Origin: a virus
Taxonomy: Duplodnaviria > Caudoviricetes
DNA: 64,000 nt
IMG/VR virus record: IMGVR_UViG_3300028048_000077
Span: 32,001 to 96,000 of that record
Direction: 5' to 3' (one strand)
Numbering within the stretch: the stretch's first letter is position 1; each line of letters starts with the position of its first letter. This document shows, in pieces, positions 7,200-62,897 of the stretch. The notes under the pieces are model-generated. The model did no database searches. It had not been told where the DNA came from and saw only the letters and a list, made by a program, of their open reading frames with translations. Made by a program: the position numbers and the translations under genes.

Positions 7200-7583
7200 C
7201 TAAATATGAGTAGGCATTTCCTGCCAATTCTTCTCTGCCCATTTTCCAACAGTATCTAAAATTCTCTTTTTAGCACTTTCAGTTAATACTACAGTTTCTT
7301 CAGATCCTCGTTTTTCTATAAAATATATATTTTCACAAGAATCCATTACAACTTCTTCATACATCAATATAGGACGAATTACTCCTCTTAAAGATCCATG
7401 AGTAATTTTATATCTTGGTGTATCTATTGGTTTATTACCATGGATAACCGAGGATAATGGATACTCAACTATTTGTGGTTTATACTTTTCAATATTTAGC
7501 ATTATAACTGTATAGCTTAATCCTAATTGAAAATAAACTCTCAAATACTTAACTTTGTTAAAATCCATTATCCTCGCCTCCAA
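7200..7583 (-). CDS. hypothetical protein
   Basis: 127 aa ORF; likely start MDFNK after GAGG. Confidence 0.65.
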   Translation of the reverse strand: MEARIMDFNKVKYLRVYFQLGLSYTVIMLNIEKYKPQIVEYPLSSVIHGNKPIDTPRYKITHGSLRGVIRPILMYEEVVMDSCENIYFIEKRGSEETVVLTESAKKRILDTVGKWAEKNWQEMPTHI

Positions 7584-7586
7584 TTA

Positions 7587-7817
7587 TTAAGCTTGAGATA
7601 AGATAGCCTCTATCTCAGCTTTGTCCTCATCGGTATAAGCATCTCTGCTTAATCCCAATAAATCATTACTAGTAATCAGAATATCCTTATACAGGTTTAC
7701 CTGACTATTTAAAAGTCCGTCATTAGCAGAAATAATCATGCTATTATGAGGATTAAATGTTTCCATTGCCCTTTCAGCAAATTCCTGGTTAGTGATATAC
7801 ATTACATTTAAGCAATC
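7587..7817 (-). CDS. RNA polymerase beta' N-terminal subunit, exon 3 (DCLNVMYITNQ...)
   Basis: GAT after the intron terminal G supplies the last Asp of NADFDG^D. Confidence 0.9.
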   Translation of the reverse strand, partial: DCLNVMYITNQEFAERAMETFNPHNSMIISANDGLLNSQVNLYKDILITSNDLLGLSRDAYTDEDKAEIEAILSQA

Positions 7818-8202
7818 CTGAAATCTTCACATATGATACCTTATACATATGCAGTTCTCTTATGAACTTCTCTAGGAGTTCCCTAGAAGCAGAGACTATA
7901 TCTTCATCTCAGAGAGATGCTCCTCCACAGAACTATCGGTTGATAGCTGCTTAGTCGTTGAACGTTCCTTCCATTACCCCATTATCTTTATGAGAAATAT
8001 CTAAGGAAGGCTTCGCTGCTGATTCCCCATTGTAATAGACCTTAGCACCTATATAATATATAGGCTTTTATTTCAGCATAGTCCATCTCTTCACTTGTTT
8101 CTATCTTTCGATTCCTATTTCTAGGCAGAAGAGCTTTAGTAAGTCCCAGCAATTCAAAGGAGTGCATCCACTATGTCACCATAGTAGAGGGCATGATTAC
8201 AT
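7818..8202 (-). mobile_element. group I intron 2 (385 nt, ORF-less) within the NADFDG^D motif
   Basis: Exon ends GGU; P1 GGU|AUG pairs with CAUGCC giving a U-G at the splice site; P10 GUAAUC/GAUUGC; core elements AAUUGCUGGGA, AAUCAGCAGC, GUUCAACGACUA, AAGAUAUAGUC; terminal G. Confidence 0.92.
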
Positions 8203-8316
8203 ACCATCAAAATCTGCGTTCAAACCTGGTAAGACTTGTAGTGGCATAGACATTGTAAATGTGTCATTTATTCCTATACATCTCATACAAAGTATAGAAC
8301 CATACTGTATACTTGG
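8203..8316 (-). CDS. RNA polymerase beta' N-terminal subunit, exon 2 (38 codons, PSIQYGS...GLNADFDG)
   Basis: Manual translation gives the catalytic NADFDG motif in frame between the two introns. Confidence 0.92.
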
Positions 8317-9376
8317 CTTATTTCTTCACATAGTTTAGTTTATCACTATGCAGTTCTCTTATGAACTTCTCTGAGTATTACTCAGAAGGTGAGAGTACAT
8401 CATTATCCTAGAAGATGAGGATATCCAGTGCTGTCCTTCACTTGAAGGCGCATACTCGTTGAATTATTAAAACTTATCCCAAATAACATCTATTTAAATA
8501 ATAAATAGAAATGGGGTATTCAATTATGGCTCTTAGTAAAGTTAAATGTGAACATCCAACTCAAGAACATATGCAAACTGCTAATTATAGATATAGGAAA
8601 AATCTTATCAATAATTTTGGAATGTATCATATTGATGAACAATGGCTTCCTATTATATTAGCTGATATTCAACCTTGGTATTACGTAAGTAATTATGGAA
8701 GAATATATTCTAAATTATATGATTGTATTATTAGAGATAGATTAGTAGGTCATGGTTATAAAATTGTGACCTTACGTACTATATATAATACACCAATAGA
8801 TTGTTTAATTCATCGTATTGAAATGATAACTTTTAATCCTATTCCTAATTATAAGGATATGCAAGTTAATCATATAGATGGAAATAAACTAAATAATCGT
8901 TTATATAATTTAGAATGGTGTACATGTCTTGAAAACATACATCATGCTATCATTAATAATATTTATAATAATATTGGTGAGAATAATGTATGTGCAGTAT
9001 TTACAAATGAACAAGTTCATATAATTTGTAAATGCTTAGAAATGAATTATTCATTTAAAGCCATATGTGATACTTTAAATATTGAATACAATGATAAAAC
9101 TATTTCCAGAATTAATCAAATAAAACGTCATAAAAACTGGAAACAAATTTCATCTCAATATAAGTTTTAACAACTGCTGATTTTCGATTGTTTATAGACC
9201 TTAGCACCTATATATCTCTATATAGGCTTTTATTTCAGCATAGTCCATCTCTTCACTTGTTTCTGACTTTCGTCTCCATTAAGGCAGAAGAGCTTTACGA
9301 GGTCCCAGCAATTCTCTGGATAGTTTTAAGCACAGCATTATTTTATATCTTCTTCTGCTATACCGAACCCAAGTTA
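8317..9376 (-). mobile_element. group I intron 1 (1060 nt) at NRN^PSI, carrying an antisense HNH endonuclease
   Basis: Exon ends AAU; guide ACUUGG-GUUC pairs with GAAU and CCAAGU; core nearly identical to intron 2; P7 GAGUA/UACUC; terminal G at 8317. Confidence 0.9.
8511..9170 (+). CDS. NUMOD4-HNH homing endonuclease (I-HmuI-like), antisense inside intron 1
   Basis: YYVSNYGRI, GYKIVTL, IHR and VNHIDGNKLNNRLYNLEWCT motifs; likely start 8526; AACA-N6-TA at 8485-8496. Confidence 0.9.
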   Translation: MGYSIMALSKVKCEHPTQEHMQTANYRYRKNLINNFGMYHIDEQWLPIILADIQPWYYVSNYGRIYSKLYDCIIRDRLVGHGYKIVTLRTIYNTPIDCLIHRIEMITFNPIPNYKDMQVNHIDGNKLNNRLYNLEWCTCLENIHHAIINNIYNNIGENNVCAVFTNEQVHIICKCLEMNYSFKAICDTLNIEYNDKTISRINQIKRHKNWKQISSQYKF

Positions 9377-10585
9377 ATTCCTGTTTACTAACATTTTTAT
9401 ACCACCAGTATAATCTATCAAATTTTGTATGATTTGTCTTACCATATCATTTGGGAACAATTGAGCTTTATACCATATACTATATGCCTTAGAATACGTA
9501 CAGTTATATGTATGCTTAAGTATATTTACAATAGTCTGTTGTAATAACTCTACTAAAGCATGATATGGTAATTTAATCTCATCAATTCTCAGATTTAAAT
9601 CTGGAACGATAATACTTCTATTGGTAAATGAGCATTTACCTCCGATAAGAAGTCTAATGTTTCCTTTCTTTTGTGCAAGAGTCTTTTCTATCTCTGTATA
9701 AAGAGCATTATATCTATCTTGTAAATCCCACAGCAATGTAGAACGATACTTGAATATATTATACATTGAAAGCTCGTCCTGATTTATTTTTCCTGCTAAC
9801 TTTGCCATGATATTAAAGATAGCATTTGTTCCTTCAAATGTGAATACTCCATTCTCTACTTTGAATGGTCTCATTCCTGTAGAGAATACTGGAATAGCAC
9901 CAGTAAAGATATTCTCTTTATTTTCAATAATCATTTCATATTGATCAATCTTCTTAGTACCATTCTTCTTATGGAAGTACTCTAATATTTCATCGAAATT
10001 CTCTTTAAACTGCAGCATTCCAATTCCAGCATATGTCTTATCTGAATTAGAATGTTTAGTGAACTTCTTTTTATTAGCCATTTTCTTCTTAAATGCTTTT
10101 TTCTCCCAAGAAGTCATCTTAGTACCATTAGTATTCAATTCTACATCTGGTTCTATGATTGCTTGGAGATTATCATTCCCGAAGTATGACTGTATAACTT
10201 TAAATAGATTTGGATGAATAATCTTATATGGCTCTTTTAATTTAATCCATCCAAATATCTCAAAATTATCTCCAATAAACTTGACCTCAGTATGGCAATA
10301 TGGACATATCAATCCTTTCTTATTAATACCTTGCCAAGTTTTACATTCACAAGAAAACTTATCTGCAAATGCATTATCATCTTGCAATGTTTTCATAAAT
10401 CTTTCGGAATAGATAGAGTCTGGAGACTTAAGAGATTTCTTTAATGCTTGTGGCTCTTTAATCAGGAATCCCATTCCTGTAATCAAGTCATTTTGCATCT
10501 CTTTCTCAAGATTCATTCTTACAAGACGAGTTCTGTATTCATATTCATCAGAATACGGATATTGTACTCGTGTATTTACTTGCAT
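9377..10585 (-). CDS. RNA polymerase beta' N-terminal subunit (probably non-virion RNAP), exon 1
   Basis: Zn finger CEC...CPYC, GWIKL, KKGNIRLLIGGKCSFTNRSIIVP (cf. GKRVDYSGRSVI), ends LVNRN; start MQVNT after AAGGAGG; early motif at 10642-10659; spliced product ~517 aa. Confidence 0.9.
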
Positions 10586-10790
10586 AAAAAATATCCTCCT
10601 TTTATTTAATTTTGACTCATTCGAGTGGCCTCCTAATCCACTCATATATATATAGTATATATTTAATTGATATTTTGATCCCGTACCTATATGGTACGGG
10701 ACCATTATCTTATCAAATAATTGTTAAGAAAAAAATATTATTTAAAAAAAGACCCACCATCATATGATGGTGGGGTATGCAGGGGTATAA

Positions 10791-11038: not shown

Positions 11039-12808
11039 TTATTCATCTATAAAGTTTACAGTCAAAACAGAGTCTGGAATACGATCTGCGTAATTATAAC
11101 TACCAGTTAGAACACTTTTAAACGTATTATAATCAGTAAATACTGATCTTCTTACATTATTAAATACTAATGAAGATTCCTCACCTAATACAACATCTCC
11201 AAATAAAGTTCTAATTGAAGAATCCTGATATATACTAAATAAATCAAAATTTAATTTTACTTTAGTTAATGATCTACAACCAGAAAACATTACATACATT
11301 CTATTTACATTTCTTGTATTCCAATTAGAAAGATCTATTTCAGTTAAAGATGTGCATTTATAAAACATATAATCCATAGTTCTTACTTTACTAGTATCCC
11401 AGTTAGATACATCCACAGTAGTTAATGATGAACAGGAGGCAAATACACCATACATAGTTTTTACTTTACTAGTATCCCAATTAGATACATCTACAGTAGT
11501 TAATGATGAACAGTAATTAAATATCTGTTTCATATTTGTGACATTACTTACATCCCAGTTAGATACATCTATATCAGTTAATGATAAACAGTGATCAAAT
11601 GCGAATTCAAAACTAGTAATTGGAGAAGTATCCCAGTTAGAACTATCTATAGAAATTAGATTGCTACAATATGAAAGCATCATATCTGCATTAATAAAAG
11701 TAGTTGTATTATTTAATATTCTTTGAATATCATCATTATATGATTGATCTAATTCAGTTATATTCTTATAATTCGGAATATTTTCATATGCATAATCCTT
11801 TAGATTATTTGAAATTCTATCTTCTAATGGCCTAATATATCCATTTATATATACTTTAATCAGATCAACTATATTCATATTACCATTTATATCTTTATTT
11901 GTTTTTACCGCTTTATCAAGTGTACCATTTAAATCTAAAATTAATTTTGATTTAGTACTTATACTTCCAGTAATATCAGATATACATTTTGCAAAATGCA
12001 CAAAATTTTCCCCATTAATATCTTTTGTTATTTTACGTCCTATATTAACAGTTCCATTTAAATAACTATCAGGAGCTTTTAATACTACTAATAATTTATT
12101 ATTACATATAATATCAATATTATGCTTAGTTGGATAAAATAATCTTAAAGATACTATACAGTTATGTTTAGTAAGGAACCCATCTGGATATAAAGTATTT
12201 ATACATTCTTCTTTAGAAGTTTTTATACATGCAGAATCTATAATCATTCCATTAATATCATTTCCAATAGCATTTTTAATCTTGATAATTTCCTCAGGAA
12301 GATAGTTAAGATAGTTTAATGGAGCATCAGATGGATGTAATCCATGATCACTATTTAGCAATGTAGATAAATTATTAAAATTATATGGTCTACCATTTAA
12401 ATCTGAATAATATACAGCATTTCTATCAGTGTAATTTGAATACAAATCTGTTTTGCTTGAAGTATATACTCTAACAGCGGATCCTATAAGTTTAAATCCT
12501 TTATAATTATTATAGCTATCATTATGAATCATATAATAAAATACTTTGTCCATAGCGTCAAAGTATGAATATTCATTAGTACCAGGATTATAATTTTTCA
12601 CATGTGAATATACACAAAGTATATATTTTAATGGTTTATTTAAAGAGTATGGGTATACATTATTATCTACTTTTTCAAGTGTATATTGAACAAATATTTT
12701 TGGATTGAAAGAACTATTAGAATTTAGTGGTACGCTTAAAGGCGTACCACTCCCTTCATTTATAGTTCCAGAGCCCTGAAGAATAATTTCTCTACCATTA
12801 ATTTGCAT
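11039..12808 (-). CDS. virion-associated protein with BspA/DUF285-type 26-residue leucine-rich repeats
   Basis: C-terminal repeats MFxxCSSLTTVDVSNWDTSKV; N-terminal domain paralogous to 14909..15892. Confidence 0.8.
   Translation of the reverse strand: MQINGREIILQGSGTINEGSGTPLSVPLNSNSSFNPKIFVQYTLEKVDNNVYPYSLNKPLKYILCVYSHVKNYNPGTNEYSYFDAMDKVFYYMIHNDSYNNYKGFKLIGSAVRVYTSSKTDLYSNYTDRNAVYYSDLNGRPYNFNNLSTLLNSDHGLHPSDAPLNYLNYLPEEIIKIKNAIGNDINGMIIDSACIKTSKEECINTLYPDGFLTKHNCIVSLRLFYPTKHNIDIICNNKLLVVLKAPDSYLNGTVNIGRKITKDINGENFVHFAKCISDITGSISTKSKLILDLNGTLDKAVKTNKDINGNMNIVDLIKVYINGYIRPLEDRISNNLKDYAYENIPNYKNITELDQSYNDDIQRILNNTTTFINADMMLSYCSNLISIDSSNWDTSPITSFEFAFDHCLSLTDIDVSNWDVSNVTNMKQIFNYCSSLTTVDVSNWDTSKVKTMYGVFASCSSLTTVDVSNWDTSKVRTMDYMFYKCTSLTEIDLSNWNTRNVNRMYVMFSGCRSLTKVKLNFDLFSIYQDSSIRTLFGDVVLGEESSLVFNNVRRSVFTDYNTFKSVLTGSYNYADRIPDSVLTVNFIDE
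11270..11690 (-). repeat. 78-bp tandem coding repeats (about 5 units)
   Basis: Recurrent tcccagttagatacatc...cagtagttaatgatgaaca at 78-nt spacing. Confidence 0.8.
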
Positions 12809-12831: not shown

Positions 12832-14061
12832 TTAAGCTTTAATTCCAAATGCCATTCCCACATCTATATCAGATAGATTTACCTGAGCATCATGGAATGC
12901 TTTCATTGATATATTTTTAAGCTTAGATGCTACCTGAGGAGTAGATACTCCTACATTGGTAATACCAATTCTATTGAATAGATTACCAGCACAAGCATGA
13001 CAAATACCATGTTTAGATTCACATAATGAAGAGAATCTAAACTTAACTTTCTTACCAATATACTTATCCACATTCTGTGAAGTAAGTTCTACAAGTTTAC
13101 CATTTTCCACAATATAAGAATACATAAGCAAACTTGCAAGTTTCTCAGTAAGATCTATTTCAATGGTTTTCTTAGTTCCACAATCTTTATTATTAGGATC
13201 AAGAGTAAGATGTTGGAATGCTTTTAAGAATAACTTCTCCCAATAACCACCGATACCTGTCTTAATACCACGAGAATATGGACCAGCAGCCAATGCTCTT
13301 GCAGTATTAGCATAGTCTTTCTTACTAATACCAGTCATATAAGAAGAAGTTACAATATTAAATCCCTTAGTAGGGTCAGGATCCTTAACTGCACCCTTCA
13401 TAACAAAGATATTCTTGAAGTTATTATCAAAAGATCCTTTAGCTCCAGAATAATACATATCCATAGCTTTATCATCTTTAAGAAGATCCTGAGCATATTT
13501 AAGAACCTCATTCTCAAAATCAATTGATGCTTTAGGATCATTTTTCTCTATTCCATCTTTATATTTACTATATAGCTCTTTCTTCTTCTTTTCAATAAAA
13601 GTAGCAGACATGAGCATTTCTTTAGAGAAAGATGGGCAATATATATTACAATATGGCATAAATTTTTGGGCCATCATATGAAATTTCTTAATAGCTTCTA
13701 AAGGAATTCTATCCTCTAAAACAGCATAAGATAATCTCTTATTAATTTCTTCTGCTACTTTCTTAGACACTGGTCTATTTACATATCCAATTACATCCAT
13801 TAAATCTTCTTCAATGAATGTTCGATTGAATATGAATAATCCAATTGTAGTAACAAAAGGTTTCTTATTCTTATGGCCTTCTTTACCAAATACTCCAGCA
13901 GGAATCTCTATGAGATCATATGTATTAAACTTTTTCTTATTACCAAATTCTCCAAAATTCTCCATAATGAAAGATGTTTTCTGCATATCATATGGAGTAA
14001 GACTAGTAAAATAGTTTACTATTTCTGGGTCTTTGATAACTTTACTTGTTCTTTTTGCCAT
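12832..14061 (-). CDS. RNA polymerase beta' C-terminal subunit (likely virion RNAP)
   Basis: SGAKG, GGYWEK..DCGT, LCESKHGICHACAG Zn site, SMKAFH (cf. TMRTFH). Confidence 0.88.
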   Translation of the reverse strand: MAKRTSKVIKDPEIVNYFTSLTPYDMQKTSFIMENFGEFGNKKKFNTYDLIEIPAGVFGKEGHKNKKPFVTTIGLFIFNRTFIEEDLMDVIGYVNRPVSKKVAEEINKRLSYAVLEDRIPLEAIKKFHMMAQKFMPYCNIYCPSFSKEMLMSATFIEKKKKELYSKYKDGIEKNDPKASIDFENEVLKYAQDLLKDDKAMDMYYSGAKGSFDNNFKNIFVMKGAVKDPDPTKGFNIVTSSYMTGISKKDYANTARALAAGPYSRGIKTGIGGYWEKLFLKAFQHLTLDPNNKDCGTKKTIEIDLTEKLASLLMYSYIVENGKLVELTSQNVDKYIGKKVKFRFSSLCESKHGICHACAGNLFNRIGITNVGVSTPQVASKLKNISMKAFHDAQVNLSDIDVGMAFGIKA

Positions 14062-37506: not shown

Positions 37507-40500
37507 ATGGCTGTATTCTTAGATAATCTTAAATATATGAGATTATATAGAACTCAAATATATTTACCAGTAAAAATGGAATCTAGAAAAACTGGTAGTT
37601 TGATTTTCTTGCTTTCTAATAATCCAAATACTGCTTCATTATTGATGAATCATCCTAAAACTATTAACATCAATAGCTTTATAAGTTATTATGTAGAGAA
37701 GAATGTAAATCTCTATCTTAATGAAAGTACTAAGTATTGGGGATTAGAAGAGTCTATTTCTGCCAAAGAAAGAAGAGAAATTCCAGCGGATCAATTTGGT
37801 CTTCCAGAGGAAAGAAAGTATCCTTTGGATACTCCAGAACATGTTCGTTCTGCTATTAAACTCTTCGGTCATTGTGAAGAAGATAAGAAACATCAGCTTG
37901 CAGTTCGTATTATGAAAGCTGCTAAGAAATTTAATATAGAAATTAAAGAGGATACTGAGGTTTATAAGTATGCTCATATGAAATCTATTAAAGAAGAGAT
38001 GTTAGAGGAAGAAGTAAATTATGAATATAATTCTCCTTCTTTGATAACTCCAAATACAGGTAGTATTACTGAACAGTATATGACCTACAATGTAGATAAT
38101 CATACTTATAGAACTTTCTTTGATGAAGATATTGATTCTTTATTAGAAACTACAGATATGAAACTTAGAAAGATTTTATATGCTGGTAGAATCAAGAATA
38201 ATAAAGAACAGCTTCTTATCTATGATAAGATTAAAGGTATGCATCCTAATATCAAATATACTTATCTTACTTTGGATAAGTATAAAGCTAAGAATCTGTT
38301 TGTAGATACTTCTCATTATTTGAGTGATTTTGCTAATAAGAATACATATAAACTTGATATAGGATTAAATCTGTATGCTAAACTCTTATCTAAATTATTC
38401 AATGATAATAGATATATGCAGAATGGATATACTAAATTTACAATATTCGTTGATGTAGATGAAGTATATAAAGATGATGCTACATCTTATGATTTTAGAA
38501 AAGATATCAATATCTTATCTTTGATTAATAGATACTTAATTCTTAGAAAAGATTTGAAGTCTGTATTGCCACATGATATTGTATTCTTCTCTAAGAATGC
38601 ATATTTTAAAGTAAACGTAGCTGATCTTGATAAGACTAACCTTATTAAGTTCAAAATGTTTATAAAGAAGCTAAAAACTAATGATATCGATGACTCAGAG
38701 TACACAAATAAGGACTCTCAGGAAGTGCTTGTGACGAAATTTGCCGATAAGCTCGAAAAGAGGGGTATTTCCCTTGATAATCTCTCTAAAACGGAAAAAT
38801 TCGCAAATTGGTCAATTAAAAATATAGTTAACCCAGGAATGCATATTGATACTGATTCTAAGAAAAAAGAATTAGTAGAAAAAATTCATACTGCTGCTGA
38901 GAAGTCTTCTACTGAAGAAGAACTTGAAAAGAATATCGAAGATCAGAATACTGAAGATGAAGTAATGGATATCATTCAGGATCTTGAATCAGAAGATAGT
39001 GGAGTCAATGTATCAAAAGCAAGAGCTACTCGTATGAGTACTTTGAATCAGAAATTCAGAGGAAAGAAGTTCAATGGTAAAACCATTGCTGAATATCTGA
39101 ATACTGAGCAGAAAGATATTCCTAAGGATAATATTCCAATTGATAGTATCAATGAAGATTGGAAGGAAGTTCATTTTAGTAAGTTCAATGAAACTTATGA
39201 TTTGGATAATGATATTATCTCTATCTTCAATTCTATGACAGATAAGTCTGCTCCAATTGCAATATTGGATATAGATAAAGAAGATAAAGTAACATCTGAG
39301 GATTATCTTGAAACTTGGACTGTTAAGTTTGAAGATGTAGATGGTAAACGTCATACTATTAAACTTGATGTTCCTAAGTTCATTGATAATAGATTTATGA
39401 TGCTTAGAGGTAACTATAAGACTATTCAGGGTCAGCTTATGCTTCTTCCAGTAATTAAAACTGGTCCAGATACTTCTCAGATTGTATCTAACTATAATAA
39501 GATATTTATTCGTAGATATAACCCATCTAATGGTAGTAAAACTACTAGAAAGATGAGTATTCTTACTAAGATACTTGATAAGTATGATGGTAAAACTTTT
39601 AAAGTATCTATTGGTGATAATGATCTTATTTGTCAGAAGTATGAATTACCTATCGAATATCAAGATTTAGCTACATCATATTCAAGAATTGAGTTTAATG
39701 ATGGAAGCTTTATTTCATTTAATCTTGATGAGATGTATGAATTAAGAGATAAGACCAAATCGAGCTTTTCTATAGTAAGTAGTATTCCATTATATTATAA
39801 TGCTAAACTTAAGAAAGTTAGATCTGTTGATATGCATATAGCTCCAAATATCTTAAATATCTTAGAAGATCATGCAAGATCAAATGTTGATAAAGAATTA
39901 TTAGAGCTTATTGCAAATACTAAACCTTCTCAAAAGCTTTCTTATACTACAGCTAGTATTTTGAATACTGAGATTCCAGTAATTGTAGTTATGGCATTCT
40001 CTGAAGGATTGCAGAAATCTATGGAGAAAGCTCATATCACATATAAATTCAGTGAAACTAGACCACCAAAAGAAGATAAACGTCCATATATTAAATTCAA
40101 AGATGGATATCTCCAGTATGATGATACAGTAGATGCTTCTATTCTTATGAATGGATTACAATATGTAGATACTGGATTCTATTCTATTAAAGATATAAAT
40201 GAGAAAGATATGTGGATAGATGCATTGGATAACTTCGGTGGTAGAATTAAAGCAGATGGTTTGGATAACTTCTATGATCTTATGATTGATCCTATTACTA
40301 AAGAAATTTGTGAGTTATATAAACTTCCTACAGACTATGTATCTATACTTGCATATGCATCTGCATTATTAGTAGATACTAAGTATAATAAACATACTGA
40401 TATTACTGGTAATAGATATAGAACTAAGGAACTCATTGCAGGATATGTTTATAAAACTCTTGCTACTTCTTATGGTATTTATCAATCTACTAGAAAGAAG

Positions 40501-42108
40501 AATAAGAAATCATCTGAGTTTTCTATCAAACAATCTGCTGTAGTAGATGCTATACTAAAGGATCCAACTGCTAGTGATCTTAGTATTCTGAATCCATTAC
40601 TTGAGATTGAGGCTACAAATGCAGTTTCATTTAAGGGATTATCTGGTATGAACTCTGAACGAAGCTACTCACTTGATAAGCGTATTTATGATGAGAGTAT
40701 GCTTGGAGTTATTGGAACTTCTACAGGTTTTTCTGGTAATGTAGGTATTACTAGACAGGCTACTGTAGATTCTAGTATTGCTAATACTAGAGGATTCATT
40801 AAACAGAATAAGGGGGATAAACTTAATACTCTTAATATGCTTACTGCTACTGAGGCTATGACTCCATTCATGACTACTCATGATGATGCAATGCGTATAG
40901 CAATGGGTTATATTCAGACTTCTAAACATCAGATGAGAACTAAGAGATCTTCTCCTAACTTGGTTACTACTGGTATGGATGAAGCTATTCCATATATGAC
41001 TTCTAATTTCTTCTCATATAAATTTAGAGGAAAGAAAGGAAAAGTAATCTCTGTATCAGATAAGTTCATAGTATATGAAGATACTGAGACTAAAGAAAGA
41101 GGATTCGTAGATCTGGAAGAAAAGACTATGAAGAACTCTGATGGTGGTTTCTATGTAACTCTTAGACTTAAGCCAAATGTTAAGAAAGGTCAGATTCTTA
41201 ATAATAATGATATCTTAGCATATGATCCAACTTGTTATTCTAAACAGGTTGGAAATGAAGAAGGTAATGGAGTTTCTTATAATGTAGGAACTATGGCTAA
41301 GATTGCTATTATGACTACAGATGAAGCATTCAATGATTCTACTGTAATTACTAATACATTATCTGAATCCATGAGCTCTGATTATTGTGTAGAGAAAGCT
41401 AGATATCTTCCTAAGGATACAAATATCTATCATCTTGTACAAAAGGGAATGGAAATTCAAGAGGGTGAACCTCTTATGATATTCCAGAATGCATTTGAAG
41501 AGAAAGATGCTAATACATTATTAAATTCTATTACAGATGCAGATGTAGAAGCTGTAAGTGATCTTGGACGTATTCATGTTCGTAGTAAGCTTACTGGTGT
41601 AGTACAAGATATTAAAATATTCCGTACTTGTGAATTAGATGAACTTTCTCCTTCTTTAAGAAAACTCGTAACTACATATGAGAATAGAATTAAGAAAGAG
41701 AAGGCTGAACTTAAGAAAATGGGAGTACAGAATGTAGAAGGATTACTTGATCCAGACTACAAATTAGAGGCTCAGGGTAAACTTAAGGATTGTTTAGATG
41801 GAGTAAAGATATTTGTTTATATTAAGTGCCATGATAGTATGGGCGTAGGAGATAAACTTGTATTCTCAACAGCACTTAAAGGTGTAATCAAAACTGTTAT
41901 TCCAGAAGGACAAGAACCATATACAGACTTTAGACCTAATGAAAAAGTAGAAGCATTACTTACTACAGCAGGTGTAAATGCTCGAATGGTTGGTAGTATA
42001 ATTCTTAATGGTTTGATTAATAAGATTCTTATAGAAACTGATAGAAAGTGTAAAGAGAATCTTGGAATCAAATGGAAGAATCTATATGAAATAGAAGAGA
42101 ATCAATAA
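37507..42108 (+). CDS. RNA polymerase beta subunit (likely virion RNAP) with ~600 aa N-terminal extension
   Basis: LDVPKFIDNRFMMLRG..QGQL, NPLLEIE..SFKGLSG, HDDAMRIAMG, AFNDS, GDKL...KGVI, GVNARM; late-type promoter at 37473. Confidence 0.9.
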   Translation: MAVFLDNLKYMRLYRTQIYLPVKMESRKTGSLIFLLSNNPNTASLLMNHPKTININSFISYYVEKNVNLYLNESTKYWGLEESISAKERREIPADQFGLPEERKYPLDTPEHVRSAIKLFGHCEEDKKHQLAVRIMKAAKKFNIEIKEDTEVYKYAHMKSIKEEMLEEEVNYEYNSPSLITPNTGSITEQYMTYNVDNHTYRTFFDEDIDSLLETTDMKLRKILYAGRIKNNKEQLLIYDKIKGMHPNIKYTYLTLDKYKAKNLFVDTSHYLSDFANKNTYKLDIGLNLYAKLLSKLFNDNRYMQNGYTKFTIFVDVDEVYKDDATSYDFRKDINILSLINRYLILRKDLKSVLPHDIVFFSKNAYFKVNVADLDKTNLIKFKMFIKKLKTNDIDDSEYTNKDSQEVLVTKFADKLEKRGISLDNLSKTEKFANWSIKNIVNPGMHIDTDSKKKELVEKIHTAAEKSSTEEELEKNIEDQNTEDEVMDIIQDLESEDSGVNVSKARATRMSTLNQKFRGKKFNGKTIAEYLNTEQKDIPKDNIPIDSINEDWKEVHFSKFNETYDLDNDIISIFNSMTDKSAPIAILDIDKEDKVTSEDYLETWTVKFEDVDGKRHTIKLDVPKFIDNRFMMLRGNYKTIQGQLMLLPVIKTGPDTSQIVSNYNKIFIRRYNPSNGSKTTRKMSILTKILDKYDGKTFKVSIGDNDLICQKYELPIEYQDLATSYSRIEFNDGSFISFNLDEMYELRDKTKSSFSIVSSIPLYYNAKLKKVRSVDMHIAPNILNILEDHARSNVDKELLELIANTKPSQKLSYTTASILNTEIPVIVVMAFSEGLQKSMEKAHITYKFSETRPPKEDKRPYIKFKDGYLQYDDTVDASILMNGLQYVDTGFYSIKDINEKDMWIDALDNFGGRIKADGLDNFYDLMIDPITKEICELYKLPTDYVSILAYASALLVDTKYNKHTDITGNRYRTKELIAGYVYKTLATSYGIYQSTRKKNKKSSEFSIKQSAVVDAILKDPTASDLSILNPLLEIEATNAVSFKGLSGMNSERSYSLDKRIYDESMLGVIGTSTGFSGNVGITRQATVDSSIANTRGFIKQNKGDKLNTLNMLTATEAMTPFMTTHDDAMRIAMGYIQTSKHQMRTKRSSPNLVTTGMDEAIPYMTSNFFSYKFRGKKGKVISVSDKFIVYEDTETKERGFVDLEEKTMKNSDGGFYVTLRLKPNVKKGQILNNNDILAYDPTCYSKQVGNEEGNGVSYNVGTMAKIAIMTTDEAFNDSTVITNTLSESMSSDYCVEKARYLPKDTNIYHLVQKGMEIQEGEPLMIFQNAFEEKDANTLLNSITDADVEAVSDLGRIHVRSKLTGVVQDIKIFRTCELDELSPSLRKLVTTYENRIKKEKAELKKMGVQNVEGLLDPDYKLEAQGKLKDCLDGVKIFVYIKCHDSMGVGDKLVFSTALKGVIKTVIPEGQEPYTDFRPNEKVEALLTTAGVNARMVGSIILNGLINKILIETDRKCKENLGIKWKNLYEIEENQ

Positions 42109-53696: not shown

Positions 53697-54872
53697 TTAC
53701 TTATTTGCTGTATGTATGATTAGAGCAAAGTAAAACTTAATACTCTTTTTATAAGCATTTTTAGTAGCTAATCTCTTCTTACGAGCAGCATACCTAGTAG
53801 AATAAGTATCTAACCAACCTTCTACTATTTCATCTATCTTTAATAAATGTTTGTTGGCAGTATTAGGTTTTGGAGTAATAGTATATGTAAGGAACTGAAT
53901 ATCCGCTACTTCCTTAGTAGACTTAGGCTCAGCACAATATGTATAAATCATATTACGAACCACAATCTTAATATCTCCAATAGTATGTTTATCATTTATG
54001 ATAGACTCTAAGATTTGTTTTACTTCTTCTGCTCTTACTAATGAAGAAGACGCCATCTTACAATACTTATATTCTATGGTATTAGATTGAATCTTAGCCA
54101 TAGCTTTATCTATAAACTTTTCACACCGTAAAGAATCCGAATCTGCTAAATGGAAATCTTCAGGCATCTGATTTTCAGAATTGTATACTATATAATCTTT
54201 ATTCTCATATGCTTTATAGTATTCTTTAGCAATATTCTTGATAATAGATTTGATTCTATTATGAAGCTGTTGTACTAAGTATGCTATATCTTCATCTGAG
54301 AAAGATTTAAACATTCTTTCATAACTTTCAAGCCATTTATCAGAGATAGTCTTAACAGTAGCTATAACTGTTTTAGACTTCTTAAATTCAAATGACTGAG
54401 AAAGATTATTCATTACATATTCCATAATCTCTCTATATTTAGAAGGTTCTGCAACTGGGAACATTGCATAGTGAATAGATGGATAAAATTTACCACTGAA
54501 TGCTAAATACAAAGCTGCTAACTGAGCATCTTTAGTATTCTTTTTCATTATATAATACCTAATCAAACTCATGATTAGAATTGTAGGCTCATCCTTAGCA
54601 TATCTAGGATTAAAAGCTGCTATATTCCAATAATAAGTTTCAGATATAGCTTTCTTAACTTGTACTCTATCTATATCAACTGCAGAATGTAATTCATCTG
54701 CATCTATACTACCATATGCCATTCTATCATATGGGCCAGTATCGAATAATTGTTGGTTTCTTCTATCTACAAATTTAGAGATGCATTGTTTAAACTTAGC
54801 AGCTCTAGAGCTCATTTTCTTTTCTACTATTGGATATAGAATCTTAAGAATAGCAGTGGTATTATTTTTCAT
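53697..54872 (-). CDS. conserved hypothetical (likely virion) protein
   Basis: 391 aa; GACA-N6-TAA promoter at ~54886-54899. Confidence 0.65.
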   Translation of the reverse strand: MKNNTTAILKILYPIVEKKMSSRAAKFKQCISKFVDRRNQQLFDTGPYDRMAYGSIDADELHSAVDIDRVQVKKAISETYYWNIAAFNPRYAKDEPTILIMSLIRYYIMKKNTKDAQLAALYLAFSGKFYPSIHYAMFPVAEPSKYREIMEYVMNNLSQSFEFKKSKTVIATVKTISDKWLESYERMFKSFSDEDIAYLVQQLHNRIKSIIKNIAKEYYKAYENKDYIVYNSENQMPEDFHLADSDSLRCEKFIDKAMAKIQSNTIEYKYCKMASSSLVRAEEVKQILESIINDKHTIGDIKIVVRNMIYTYCAEPKSTKEVADIQFLTYTITPKPNTANKHLLKIDEIVEGWLDTYSTRYAARKKRLATKNAYKKSIKFYFALIIHTANK

Positions 54873-58651: not shown

Positions 58652-60259
58652 TTACTTATTTATCATTAATACAAACTTCATGAACTCTTCACATATGATA
58701 TCCTTATCGACTACAATGTCTTTGCCATTAATGCTTGGGTCATAGTAGTTTATATGTGTGAATTCACTAGCTATAGCTTCTGCTATAAATTTAAATAGAA
58801 TCTTTTCAACATTGTCTTGGTCTTTATAAATATTTAATATTGATAAATATTTTTCAGACATCTTAAGCCTAGTTACCATGGTCTTACTAATAGACTTTCT
58901 AGCAACACCACGTTTAGTTCTACCAGATACAATTTCAGCTAATGTAAAGATACCATTATTATTCATAATACGCTTTGCAGCAATCAGCAACTTTACATAT
59001 TGAACTTGATTAGTATAGTTTACAGATATTATATCACCAAACATCTTGGCAAATATAAATCTTATAATATTTTCTTGATAAGCAAATCTTATATCACGAC
59101 CATCTTTAGAAAGTTCATTAATATAAAATTGGATTTCATGCTCATCAAAAGGACCATACTTAATATCTATAGTTTTCATAACATCCTCTGAATTTACTTT
59201 ATATTGAGCAGCTTCAGATTCGTTCTTTTTAATCATATACGCCTCAAACTTATCAGTCTGAGAGTTATTATCTTCATCTCTTATAGAAGAAGACACTGGT
59301 CTTAATGTATATTCATATTGAATATTAGTAATCTTAAACTTAATATCATATGCAATACTATTATAGTTAAAGCAAATGATAGATTGATTATACACATACT
59401 TAGGTATAATCTGGCATAAAAGATTCTCAAGAATATTAATACCATGAGTAATAGGATTAATACCACGGATTTCTTGCATTTCCCAAAGCTGTCTATCATG
59501 GTTCATACTCTTACCGATATTTGCCATAACAGTTTCAAACAGTTTGGATAATAAATCTACTCCAGTATGAAGTTTAATATTATCATAGATTTTATTAAAT
59601 GCTCTAGTTAAGATTTCTTTAGTCTCTTCACTAGAATTAATACCCTTAATATACATAAAGTGACTAATCAATGGAATCATAAACATCTGATACAAAGCTC
59701 CCATAATAAGAAGCTTAGCATGATAATCATGATACTCTAAACAAGGATTTCTTGTATCTTTTTTAGATGTAGTCATCTTAATATAGTTATAGTCATTCAT
59801 CTCTTTAATGAGAAAATATAATATTGGGTTAGCGTCCCAAGATATTATATATTTATACAAATCGTCAATGAATGCATCGATTGTATAAATATTTCCATAA
59901 CAGTCAATTTGAAATTTAATTTTAGAATAGATAGAAAGCAACATATGATTTCTATCAAAGAATTTCTCAAAATAATTTATATACAAGCATAAATGCTCTC
60001 TAAAGCCTATCTTTCTTTCACCAGTATTCTTATCTATCTTCGAATCACTATTGTAACACTTCTTTGGTGTCATATAGAAGTAGTCAATATGATTTCCCTC
60101 TGGAAGATTATAAAACTGATGTAAAGGAGCAATTAAAGCACCCTTAACCTGTGTGAAAAGTTGGTCTTCTGGCATCATCACCCATTTATCCACCTCTGGG
60201 ATAGTAGGTATACCAACATGCCTAAATATCTTCGGAATATTTTGTTTAATCAATTGCAT
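58652..60259 (-). CDS. non-virion RNAP promoter-specificity subunit (AR9 gp226 / phiKZ gp68-like)
   Basis: Recalled similarity to AR9 gp226 along its length (LSKLF..D..LW, IIPKY..N.S.I, SEKY, EEF...V.MI); early motif 60316-60331; needs HMM confirmation. Confidence 0.65.
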   Translation of the reverse strand: MQLIKQNIPKIFRHVGIPTIPEVDKWVMMPEDQLFTQVKGALIAPLHQFYNLPEGNHIDYFYMTPKKCYNSDSKIDKNTGERKIGFREHLCLYINYFEKFFDRNHMLLSIYSKIKFQIDCYGNIYTIDAFIDDLYKYIISWDANPILYFLIKEMNDYNYIKMTTSKKDTRNPCLEYHDYHAKLLIMGALYQMFMIPLISHFMYIKGINSSEETKEILTRAFNKIYDNIKLHTGVDLLSKLFETVMANIGKSMNHDRQLWEMQEIRGINPITHGINILENLLCQIIPKYVYNQSIICFNYNSIAYDIKFKITNIQYEYTLRPVSSSIRDEDNNSQTDKFEAYMIKKNESEAAQYKVNSEDVMKTIDIKYGPFDEHEIQFYINELSKDGRDIRFAYQENIIRFIFAKMFGDIISVNYTNQVQYVKLLIAAKRIMNNNGIFTLAEIVSGRTKRGVARKSISKTMVTRLKMSEKYLSILNIYKDQDNVEKILFKFIAEAIASEFTHINYYDPSINGKDIVVDKDIICEEFMKFVLMINK

Positions 60260-61163: not shown

Positions 61164-62897
61164 TTATTCTTCCTCTGTAATATCAGTATAACTATTATAC
61201 TGTACATCAGCTACAAGGAACTGATTGGTTAAGAATACAGTACCCATGATCTTATTAATTGCCTCTAAGATATTAGAATCAGACTTGATAGAAGAAAGTA
61301 CAGTATTATCATACTGCTTAGTACGAATATTCATAGGCATCTCATGATTAAACATATCTTCAATCAATCTGATTACTTCATCATCTGCTTTTTCTTTATT
61401 GAAATAGAGACGAGCATAAAGATTCTCATAAGCATCTACAATAATCTGATAAATATTATACTCTTCATTATCATCACTATCACAAAGAAGCTCATCAAAA
61501 GCTGCATACCCCTCAAAGTTGGCACCACGACCATAACCATTAATAGCAGCAGAACGGCAGTTTAATACAGCATCTTCTACCAAATCTCTAAGAGCATCTC
61601 TATCAGTAAGAGAAATACCACCTACAAAGATCTCAACGAGATTAGATTTGAATGCATTAATACGACGCTTCAAAGTAGCAATCTCTACAATGTTCTCTCT
61701 AGTCTCTTCAAGAGAAGCAAGCTTATCTTTCATATCCTCAAGACGAGAATTATAGAGATCAGATAGAGTACCATCTTCATTATGCATCAGAACAGGATTA
61801 ATGAATTTAGTATTATTAGAAGTAGAGATTACTGCTTCTGCATGACCACAGAAATTATGAATATTTTCAATAGTAGGAGCTAAACCTCTCTCCTGATCAG
61901 CCTTTAATAATGCTGGATCAATATACTTGCGAATAAGTTTAGCACCAGACAGATATGCTAAATCCATCAAATAATCAGTCTTACTAATATTAGTAATAAT
62001 ATTCAATGGGTACATTACTCTCTTTGCAGGAGGCATCTGAGCCATACCTTTAACAAAGTCATCAATAACACTAATTACATCTGTACCAATACGAGGGCAT
62101 ACAATTATAGTAGGAACTACTTTATCAAATTCTCTCTTAGAAGCAGGTTCAGTAATATTATCATATATTACTTTTTCCATATATGCAGAAATCTCAATAG
62201 TATCAATAGGATCCTCAAAGATATAAATCTCAGGATTTCTGATTTCACAAGTATGCTTCTCTGTATTATTGATAAGAGCTACATCACCATATCCAGAAGG
62301 AATAGTAAATCCATCATGCTCTCTTGTCATAGTTTCTGTTCCACCAGATACTCCAACATCAATGAATACATCCATACCATACTGCTTATAAATATCAGTA
62401 ATCAGATTAGCAATGTACTCATTATTATCTGTAGAAATCATAGCAATCTTATAGATATCTTCTACAGTAGTTTCAATTCTATTGGATTCAATAATCTCAA
62501 TAGCTTCATTAACTGCAGTATTAAAATCAGCAATAAGTTGCTTATCAGAAATATTAAATTTCTTACTTGCGTCACAGAGATTCTTAAAAATCTCATATGC
62601 AAGAATAACCGCAGACGTAGTACCATCACCAACTGTAGTAACAATTCTACGAGTAATATCTACAAGATTCTGTTTCATTGTAAACTCAATTGGACCAGTA
62701 AACATGATTTCCTGAAGAATAGTATGACCATCCTTAGTATATCTAGCAATATCTTTCTCTTTACGATATGCAGTGTTTACTCCATTAGGACCAAAAGATT
62801 TAGTAAGAGTATCTGCAAGTACTTTAAGTGTAGCAGTCTGTACTACTCTAAGAGAATCTTTATTTACAATATTAGAACGAACTTTGAATTTACCCAT
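61164..62897 (-). CDS. groEL: GroEL-like chaperonin
   Basis: SFGPNG, TKDGHTI, GDGTTSA, EDAVLNCRSA. Confidence 0.92.
   Translation of the reverse strand: MGKFKVRSNIVNKDSLRVVQTATLKVLADTLTKSFGPNGVNTAYRKEKDIARYTKDGHTILQEIMFTGPIEFTMKQNLVDITRRIVTTVGDGTTSAVILAYEIFKNLCDASKKFNISDKQLIADFNTAVNEAIEIIESNRIETTVEDIYKIAMISTDNNEYIANLITDIYKQYGMDVFIDVGVSGGTETMTREHDGFTIPSGYGDVALINNTEKHTCEIRNPEIYIFEDPIDTIEISAYMEKVIYDNITEPASKREFDKVVPTIIVCPRIGTDVISVIDDFVKGMAQMPPAKRVMYPLNIITNISKTDYLMDLAYLSGAKLIRKYIDPALLKADQERGLAPTIENIHNFCGHAEAVISTSNNTKFINPVLMHNEDGTLSDLYNSRLEDMKDKLASLEETRENIVEIATLKRRINAFKSNLVEIFVGGISLTDRDALRDLVEDAVLNCRSAAINGYGRGANFEGYAAFDELLCDSDDNEEYNIYQIIVDAYENLYARLYFNKEKADDEVIRLIEDMFNHEMPMNIRTKQYDNTVLSSIKSDSNILEAINKIMGTVFLTNQFLVADVQYNSYTDITEEE

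Follow-up and report, generated by a model that had tools for sequence, protein, structure and literature searches.

Introns in phage RNA polymerase genes

Introns in the RNA polymerase (RNAP) genes of jumbo phages are stated to be frequent, with 'one or more' per gene. The gene considered here lies on the minus strand (10585-7587) of a 64,000-nt stretch of phage DNA, called the window throughout, which comprises bases 32001-96000 of a 128.8-kb IMG/VR virus record (IMGVR_UViG_3300028048_000077; CheckV completeness about 52%). By sequence similarity it is the gene for the N-terminal half of beta' (beta'-N) of a non-virion multisubunit RNAP from an AR9/phiR1-37-like jumbo phage. Two introns interrupt it, intron 1 between the NRN and P codons and intron 2 between the G and the last D of the catalytic motif NADFDGD. 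In what follows, a slash within a nucleotide or protein sequence marks an insertion point or an exon joint. The locus is of a known kind, since AR9 shares the DFDG/D intron and phage genes with several introns have been described. Worth attention are an endonuclease cassette antisense to intron 1 and a multi-site hot spot in which near-identical introns occupy different positions in near-identical phages.

The nearest described counterpart, AR9 g270/g271 (Lavysh et al. 2016, as annotated in KU878088), is the same gene, interrupted at the same point between Gly and the last Asp by a group I intron with an HNH endonuclease. The earlier note on this DNA had mentioned that an AR9 RNAP gene carries an intron, and g270 is indeed interrupted at this very DFDG/D site. 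The likeness extends to the HNH_3 plus NUMOD4 architecture of the endonuclease and to the J6/7-P7 and J8/7-P7 core sequences, which are identical to those of the window introns. AR9 differs in having a single intron with the endonuclease gene on the sense strand, and a 3' domain without the 25-nt element of the window introns, whereas the DFDG/D intron of the window has no open reading frame (ORF) and is preceded by a second intron 38 codons upstream. In PhiPA3, too, a multisubunit RNAP gene of a jumbo phage carries a group I intron that encodes an endonuclease; the likeness is one of description, and PhiPA3 differs in that its single intron belongs to the virion RNAP of a nucleus-forming Pseudomonas phage. 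The PhiPA3 intron endonuclease acts in competition between phages and can work against a phage without the intron during co-infection (Birkholz et al., reviewed in PMC12908238). Several self-splicing introns within conserved motifs of one essential phage gene, as here, are found in AR9 gyrase A (two introns) and in Twort nrdE (two group I introns; Landthaler et al. 2002), although these are other genes. The literature searched gave no case of an RNAP catalytic motif isolated on a micro-exon.

I-HmuI, I-BasI, I-TwoI and I-PfoP3I are intron-encoded HNH nicking endonucleases. The enzyme of the window, whose activity is predicted, resembles this family in being an HNH enzyme inside a phage group I intron, a situation described in PMC3428280. 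Endonuclease genes antisense to their intron are known from nuclear group I introns of ribosomal DNA, namely Dir.S956-2 from Didymium (PMC3679873) and the L2066 introns (PMC9548176). As in intron 1, these introns have their endonuclease gene within a peripheral loop and on the strand opposite to that of the ribozyme. They differ in being eukaryotic and nucleolar, in encoding His-Cys box enzymes and in using spliceosomal-intron and polyadenylation tricks, whereas the window offers a phage gene as host, an HNH-type enzyme and a phage-promoter-like motif. No antisense intron endonuclease of a phage was found in a literature search that was narrow and is thus weak evidence of absence.

Exons, introns and the proposed splicing of the beta' gene

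Exon 1 (10585-9377, minus strand) has 403 codons and ends ...LVNRN, with the stop codon TAA as the first triplet beyond 9377. Exon 2 (8316-8203, minus strand), the micro-exon, has 114 nt or 38 codons (PSIQYGS...NADFDG), and exon 3 (7817-7587, minus strand; DCLNVMYITNQEF...), assigned by translation and alignment, has 76 codons and a stop. Joined, the three give 1554 nt in frame, encoding 517 amino acids (aa) that read ...LVNRN/PSIQYGS...NADFDG/DCLNV.... The ATG at 10585 stands 9 nt downstream of the Shine-Dalgarno sequence AGGAGG at 10600-10595. Exon 1 matches phrog_2987 ('RNA polymerase beta subunit') with an E of 5e-45 and, in tblastn, phiR1-37 g274 and AR9 g270, the latter annotated in its record as the N-terminal part of the non-virion RNAP beta'; Pfam PF00623 on exon 1 alone scored 20.4 bits, under its cut-off of 25.3. 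The closest isolate relatives are phiR1-37 g274, AR9 g270 and its PBS1-group counterparts, the Staphylococcus jumbo phages and phiKZ gp55. Alignments of the spliced product are gap-free at both junctions, with identities of 42% to an uninterrupted 551-aa IMG/VR homologue (L010), 34% to phiR1-37 g274 and 52% to the spliced product of L037 (L-numbered loci are IMG/VR or gut-metagenome contigs). The metal-binding loop NADFDGD is present only in the joined product and, as had been proposed, the third Mg-binding Asp is completed only by splicing.

Both 5' splice sites follow a U (AAU/UAAC in intron 1, GGU/AUGU in intron 2) and both introns terminate in G (UAAG/CC and UCAG/GA, respectively); shifting either junction by one base loses NRNP or the U/G rule. 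In L102, a gut-metagenome contig whose product shares 95% identity with exon 1, the predicted joint of exons 1 and 2, AACAGGAAT/CCAAGTATACAG, is continuous in DNA. Given this continuity at AAT/CCA, intron 1 is a precise insertion of 1060 bp; the L102-type intron-less target across the joint reads AACAGGAAT/CCAAGTATAC. The predicted exon 2-exon 3 joint is found in a contig of X2, a bovine-gut DNA run from another sample and another study, where GACGGT runs directly into GATTGC at 7817. The same run holds contigs with 0 mismatches over 8148-8352, 7743-7995 and 9282-9490, which together cover all four intron-exon boundaries. For this run, as for all DNA and RNA runs, the evidence consists of assembled contigs and not of raw reads. 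The three exons of the earlier note are exact to the base, as seen from the 517-aa product, its gap-free alignment and the L102 and X2 joints; its micro-exon bearing the catalytic motif is likewise upheld by translation, by the gap-free homologue alignment and by the X2 contig at 8148-8352.

Intron 2 (8202-7818, minus strand) is a group I intron of 385 nt without an ORF, starts AUG UAA in frame, and has the insertion site of AR9 g270 and L037. Rfam RF00028 matches it at 54.8 bits (gathering score 50; E 1.2e-12) along the full length of the model (positions 1-253) in a 2.2-kb local search, and an RF00028 search of its own genome recovered it too. Whole-window Rfam scans in gathering and E-value modes found no intron, as their speed filters miss intron 2; since local searches alone detect it, the blank whole-window scan is not evidence. 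P1 has 9 bp with a U.G pair (GAUGGU/AUG against the guide CAUGCCCUC, 8/9). The helix table and the minimum-free-energy (MFE) fold give a GNRA-capped P2, P3 (CUCCUUU with GGAGGAG), P4, a long P5 extension and P6, followed on the 3' side by P7 (GACUA with UAGUC), a single P7.1 hairpin, P8, P9, P9.1 and P9.2. An exact 30-mer from the P5 extension has no match in IMG/VR. Elsewhere in the genome, outside the window (C1:127761-127986, plus strand), there is a weak RF00028 candidate of 13.3 bits (E 0.05). Short BLAST matches of the intron-2 3' end at 58681-58707, within coding sequence beside a stop codon, and at 54284-54306 were considered and rejected; neither is an intron.

Intron 2 also occurs as a circle in RNA. 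In each of two bovine-gut (rumen) metatranscriptomes from different studies, X19 and X20, a 413-nt contig matches the window with 0 mismatches and its ends overlap by 30 nt, giving a circle of 383 nt (7818-8200, minus strand). The joint, between 8199/8200 and 7817/7818, links the terminal G at 7818 to the G at 8200, which is intron base 3, and the first two intron bases are lost. Depth on the X19 circle is 19, versus about 2-3 on two other contigs of 100% identity, one downstream of the gene (7300-7417) and one within exon 1 (10230-10400), a difference of about 8-fold. The circle joint is absent from the DNA runs X2 and X9, the latter from pig gut. Circles truncated at the 5' side, formed by attack of the terminal G near the intron 5' end, are a known side reaction of group I introns (PMC13168695; PMC3679873). 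The circle joint, present in RNA from two studies, is taken as direct evidence at the contig level for excision of intron 2 at the predicted 3' splice site and for its catalytic activity in nature. An excised intron circle already visible in rumen RNA is also of practical value.

Intron 1 (9376-8317, minus strand) has 1060 nt and an in-frame UAA at its start. Its identity to intron 2 is 86% in a block of 140 nt (P3-P5) and 75% in one of 95 nt (P7-P9), the near-identical blocks of the two ranging from 25 to 140 nt. Its 5' block is 84% identical to an intron in L020 as well, and the sequences only partly support a description of introns 1 and 2 as 'close paralogues'. According to the helix table and the MFE fold, P1, P2, P3, P6, P7, P7.1, P8, P9, P9.1, P9.2 and P10 of intron 1 are all fully paired. 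Both introns have the core P3-P4-P6 and P7-P3'-P8-P9, with a G-C pair opening P7 (the G-binding site), and their P3 and P7 differ by compensatory changes; in intron 1, P3 is UAUCCAG with CUGGAUA and P7 is GAGUA with UACUC, against GACUA with UAGUC in the family. RNAalifold on nine 3' domains including intron 1 gave 33 pairs, 17 of them with compensatory changes, and recovered P7, P7.1, P9, P9.1 and P9.2. Among these nine domains the swap of C-G to G-C in P7 is limited to intron 1 and the L100 intron at the same site, and hence marks a site-specific lineage. The guide of intron 1, 5'-ACUUGG-GUUC-3', pairs through GUUC with the exon end GAAU (P1) and through ACUUGG with CCAAGU, the first six bases of exon 2 (P10, 6/6), the two pairings being contiguous. 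The U-G pairs at the P1 splice sites and the terminal Gs that had been assigned to both introns are thus found in the helix table.

Taken together, two related group I ribozymes very probably interrupt the beta'-N pre-mRNA, their splicing giving the active subunit, with circle formation and endonuclease mobility as follows. By the general group I mechanism, the internal guide of each intron would pair with the upstream exon end, with U.G at the splice site. Free guanosine would cut the 5' splice site, and the exons would be ligated once the terminal G fills the G-binding site of P7. Only the doubly spliced mRNA would encode NRN-PSI and NADFDG-D, and hence all three Mg-binding aspartates; unspliced RNA would present an immediate stop, UAA in intron 1 and AUG UAA in intron 2. 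Excised intron 2 would cyclise by attack of its terminal G after intron base 2, producing the circle in rumen RNA. Intron 1 would be the mobile one, the opposite-strand cassette in its P6 loop consisting of a promoter-like motif and a NUMOD4/HNH gene. The endonuclease would nick or cut intron-less alleles (e.g. L102) near AAT/CCA, and repair would copy the intron in during co-infection. Splicing of intron 1, ligation of the exons, and the expression and target of the endonuclease are predicted parts of this scheme. Both ribozymes must then work for the phage to make its own transcription machinery, which is a clean example from nature of selfish RNA holding an essential enzyme hostage at the residues most strongly conserved in it.

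Several observations weigh against double splicing, most of them on the side of intron 1. Rfam gave no match to intron 1 at E<=10, whether with 7400-9600 (2.2 kb) or with the 3' half alone (8300-8490), and the case for group I is therefore comparative; of the group I assignment made for both introns in the earlier note, the covariance model bears out intron 2 and leaves intron 1 unmatched. The intron at the same NRN/P site of L100, which lacks an endonuclease gene, reaches 15.7 bits with RF00028 (E 0.27). P1 of intron 1 is short, with 5 bp (GAAU/U with GGUUC) of which two are G.U, and at 100% identity the RNA runs have no contig on intron 1 or on the endonuclease. In intron 2 the P10 is weak (4 bp, AAUC:GAUU, with a 2-nt offset), so that the guide pairing to the 3' exon claimed for both introns is convincing for intron 1 only. 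Finally, RNA libraries may contain DNA, and the circle is known from assembled contigs only. RNA contigs at 100% identity include no exon-exon joint; exon depth being about 2-3 in short contigs, neither this nor the missing cover of intron 1 and the endonuclease says anything either way. The lack of an Rfam match is likely due to the 711 nt inserted into P6 and to reduction of the P7.1/P7.2 region, and intron 1 is nevertheless a relative of intron 2 with complete core helices and predicted activity. Were it instead a decayed, non-splicing intron, the gene would be dead or the contig would come from a defective genome, intron 2 alone being active. The missing Rfam match, the short P1 and the lack of an intron-1 RNA contig in X19 and X20 would fit this, as would the NRN-site junctions of L099 and L101, for which a U/G pair could not be reconstructed. 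Decay is nonetheless very improbable, as the core helices are intact with changes that are compensatory and not disruptive, P10 is a perfect 6-mer, the exons are in frame with every conserved residue kept, and intron 2 of the same transcript is processed. Moreover, the site is occupied in 35/120 homologue clusters, which is hard to square with a lethal insertion in an essential gene.

A beta' subunit divided further, its pieces translated separately and assembling without any splicing, might be suggested by the naturally split beta and beta' genes of jumbo phages (PMC7598289) and by the stop codon at which exon 1 ends. It is very hard to reconcile with a 38-codon exon 2 that has neither start codon nor ribosome-binding site, with an active-site loop cut inside DFDG/D, with intervening DNA that is an excised group I ribozyme, and with intron-less alleles that are colinear. 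The chance of an assembly artefact is also minimal. The near-identical blocks could mislead an assembler into mis-joining related intron copies around a false micro-exon, but the independent 0-mismatch contigs of X2 cross all four intron-exon boundaries and thereby rule out mis-assembly, and twin introns are present in the separately assembled L100 and L101.

The antisense endonuclease cassette and promoter-like motifs

In the proposed doubly spliced gene, the cassette of the putative homing endonuclease occupies the P6 loop of intron 1 (8464-9174, plus strand), antisense to the intron. Its ORF (8511-9170, plus strand; alternative ATG at 8526) is intact and encodes 219 aa, and the loop is closed by the P6 stem, in which 9170-9160 pairs with 8477-8467 at 11/11 positions. 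A variant of intron 1 in X2 has a 17-nt hairpin in place of 8464-9174, which delimits the cassette to 711 bp. The predicted protein scores 36.4 bits with Pfam HNH_3 (cut-off 24.8) and 21.2 bits with NUMOD4, under the cut-off of 23.4, and is 34% identical to AR9 gp271 over 119 aa. Against the phage search set of 50,697 phage records the best tblastn identities were about 30-39%, and no close relative was found in IMG/VR. The version of intron 1 with the antisense endonuclease is also present in pig gut, in a 1019-nt contig of X9 that is about 97% identical to 8233-9207.

Fifteen nt upstream of the endonuclease ATG lies an AACA-N6-TA motif (AACATCTATTTA; 8485-8496, plus strand), which matches the AR9 late-promoter consensus AACA-(6N)-TA/G (PMC5312081). 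The endonuclease may be transcribed from this putative AR9-type late promoter. A second motif, AACA-N6-TG (10714-10725, minus strand), is a putative promoter that precedes the beta'-N ATG by about 130 nt and lies just past an upstream terminator at 10774-10753. Within the window AACA-N6-TR is strongly depleted, with 60 copies versus 105 +/- 9 in shuffles, as would suit an AR9-like phage (possibly one with uracil-DNA) in which stray promoters are selected against. A scan for sigma-70 promoters gave sites no more numerous than in shuffles.

Insertion sites in relatives and the surrounding genes

The 25-nt element common to both introns (GAGAAGTTCATAAGAGAACTGCATA) is found in 88 exact IMG/VR stretches, which have the same P3/P7/P8/P9 architecture and lie in many genes, several in arrays of 2-3 within 2 kb. 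By eye, the exons downstream of the introns in the IMG/VR loci L011-L098 seem to carry, among other motifs, those of topoisomerase/gyrase (xxPIRGKxxN) and of family-B DNA polymerase (YKxLYPSI).

Homologues of the beta'-N gene fall into 120 clusters, of which 52 are continuous, 35 end exactly after NRN and about 20 end within or just before the catalytic motif; broken homologues number roughly 65 in all. No NRN break was seen in the best 45 phage records listed from the search of 50,697 records. In AR9, PBS1 and Internexus the tblastn match ends at the DFDG site, and the gene of Goe21 is uninterrupted. L037 has the DFDG/D intron only. L044 (1000-3400, minus strand) has three introns, the last within the Phe codon of DFDGD, and L100 (4700-5520) has introns at NRN/P and NAD/FDGD, the former joint showing, as in the window, a U at -1 and a G as the last intron base. 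L101 (4700-6300) combines an NRN break with a DFD/GD intron that carries a sense-strand HNH gene. For L099 and L101 no reconstruction of the exact NRN-site junctions gave a canonical U/G pair, and both are accordingly counted only as breaks of the ORF at NRN. The 21 nt coding for NADFDGD contain at least four insertion points, i.e. NAD/F, D-T/TT, DFD/G and DFDG/D. Across the gut jumbo phage population, introns thus occupy many positions within one and the same stretch of a few dozen bases in the active-site loop.

The double insertion, which the earlier note had singled out as notable, is real. It is one configuration in a crowded hot spot, as seen from the 35 of 120 clusters that stop after NRN and the roughly 20 that stop at the catalytic motif, and it is made less exceptional by the DFDG/D intron of AR9 and by the twin and triple introns that recur in uncultured relatives.

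Two further arrangements involve introns that resemble intron 2. L102 (1400-1669; protein P0001), which is without intron 1, has an intron-2-like ribozyme that follows ...CAGGT (Val codon of PLQV) and lies 30 nt upstream of the intron-2 site of the window; the two sites share the ending GGU, and the two ribozymes the guide GCCC. In X9, a contig on 7824-8201 has two intron-2-like copies flanking a 31-nt exon that codes for (V)LPGLAADFDG, and this micro-exon has no match in IMG/VR. Tentatively, and with well less than even confidence, the stretch of 45 codons surrounding the beta' active site may be a hot spot, with introns of a single family moving from one position to another close by and needing no endonuclease to do so. 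Reverse splicing is a long-proposed route for group I introns. Ectopic reverse splicing at short guide-complementary sites would fit L102, X9 and the multi-site pattern; the antisense endonuclease cassette would in that case be a separate, later invader of one intron.

Natural alleles with the intron, without the intron and without the endonuclease, at identities of at least 95%, are ready substrates for homing and splicing assays. The locus also carries a warning for annotation. 'Truncated' beta' ORFs of about 400 aa, common in gut viromes, are intron-split genes and not pseudogenes.

The locus is contained in bovine-gut metagenome DNA runs, and samples from pig gut and from bioreactors contain related sequence; a megablast search with the locus gave no match among the 50,697 phage records. 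A second RNAP subunit gene (phrog_2962; 12832-14061, minus strand) is situated 2.2 kb upstream of the beta'-N gene, and between the two lies a gene for a DUF285/BspA-type leucine-rich-repeat protein (11039-12808, minus strand). Further along the window, a 1533-aa ORF (37507-42108, plus strand) has a match of 24 bits to RpoB domain 6, and a homologue of the Cpn60/TCP-1 chaperonins is encoded at 61164-62897 on the minus strand.

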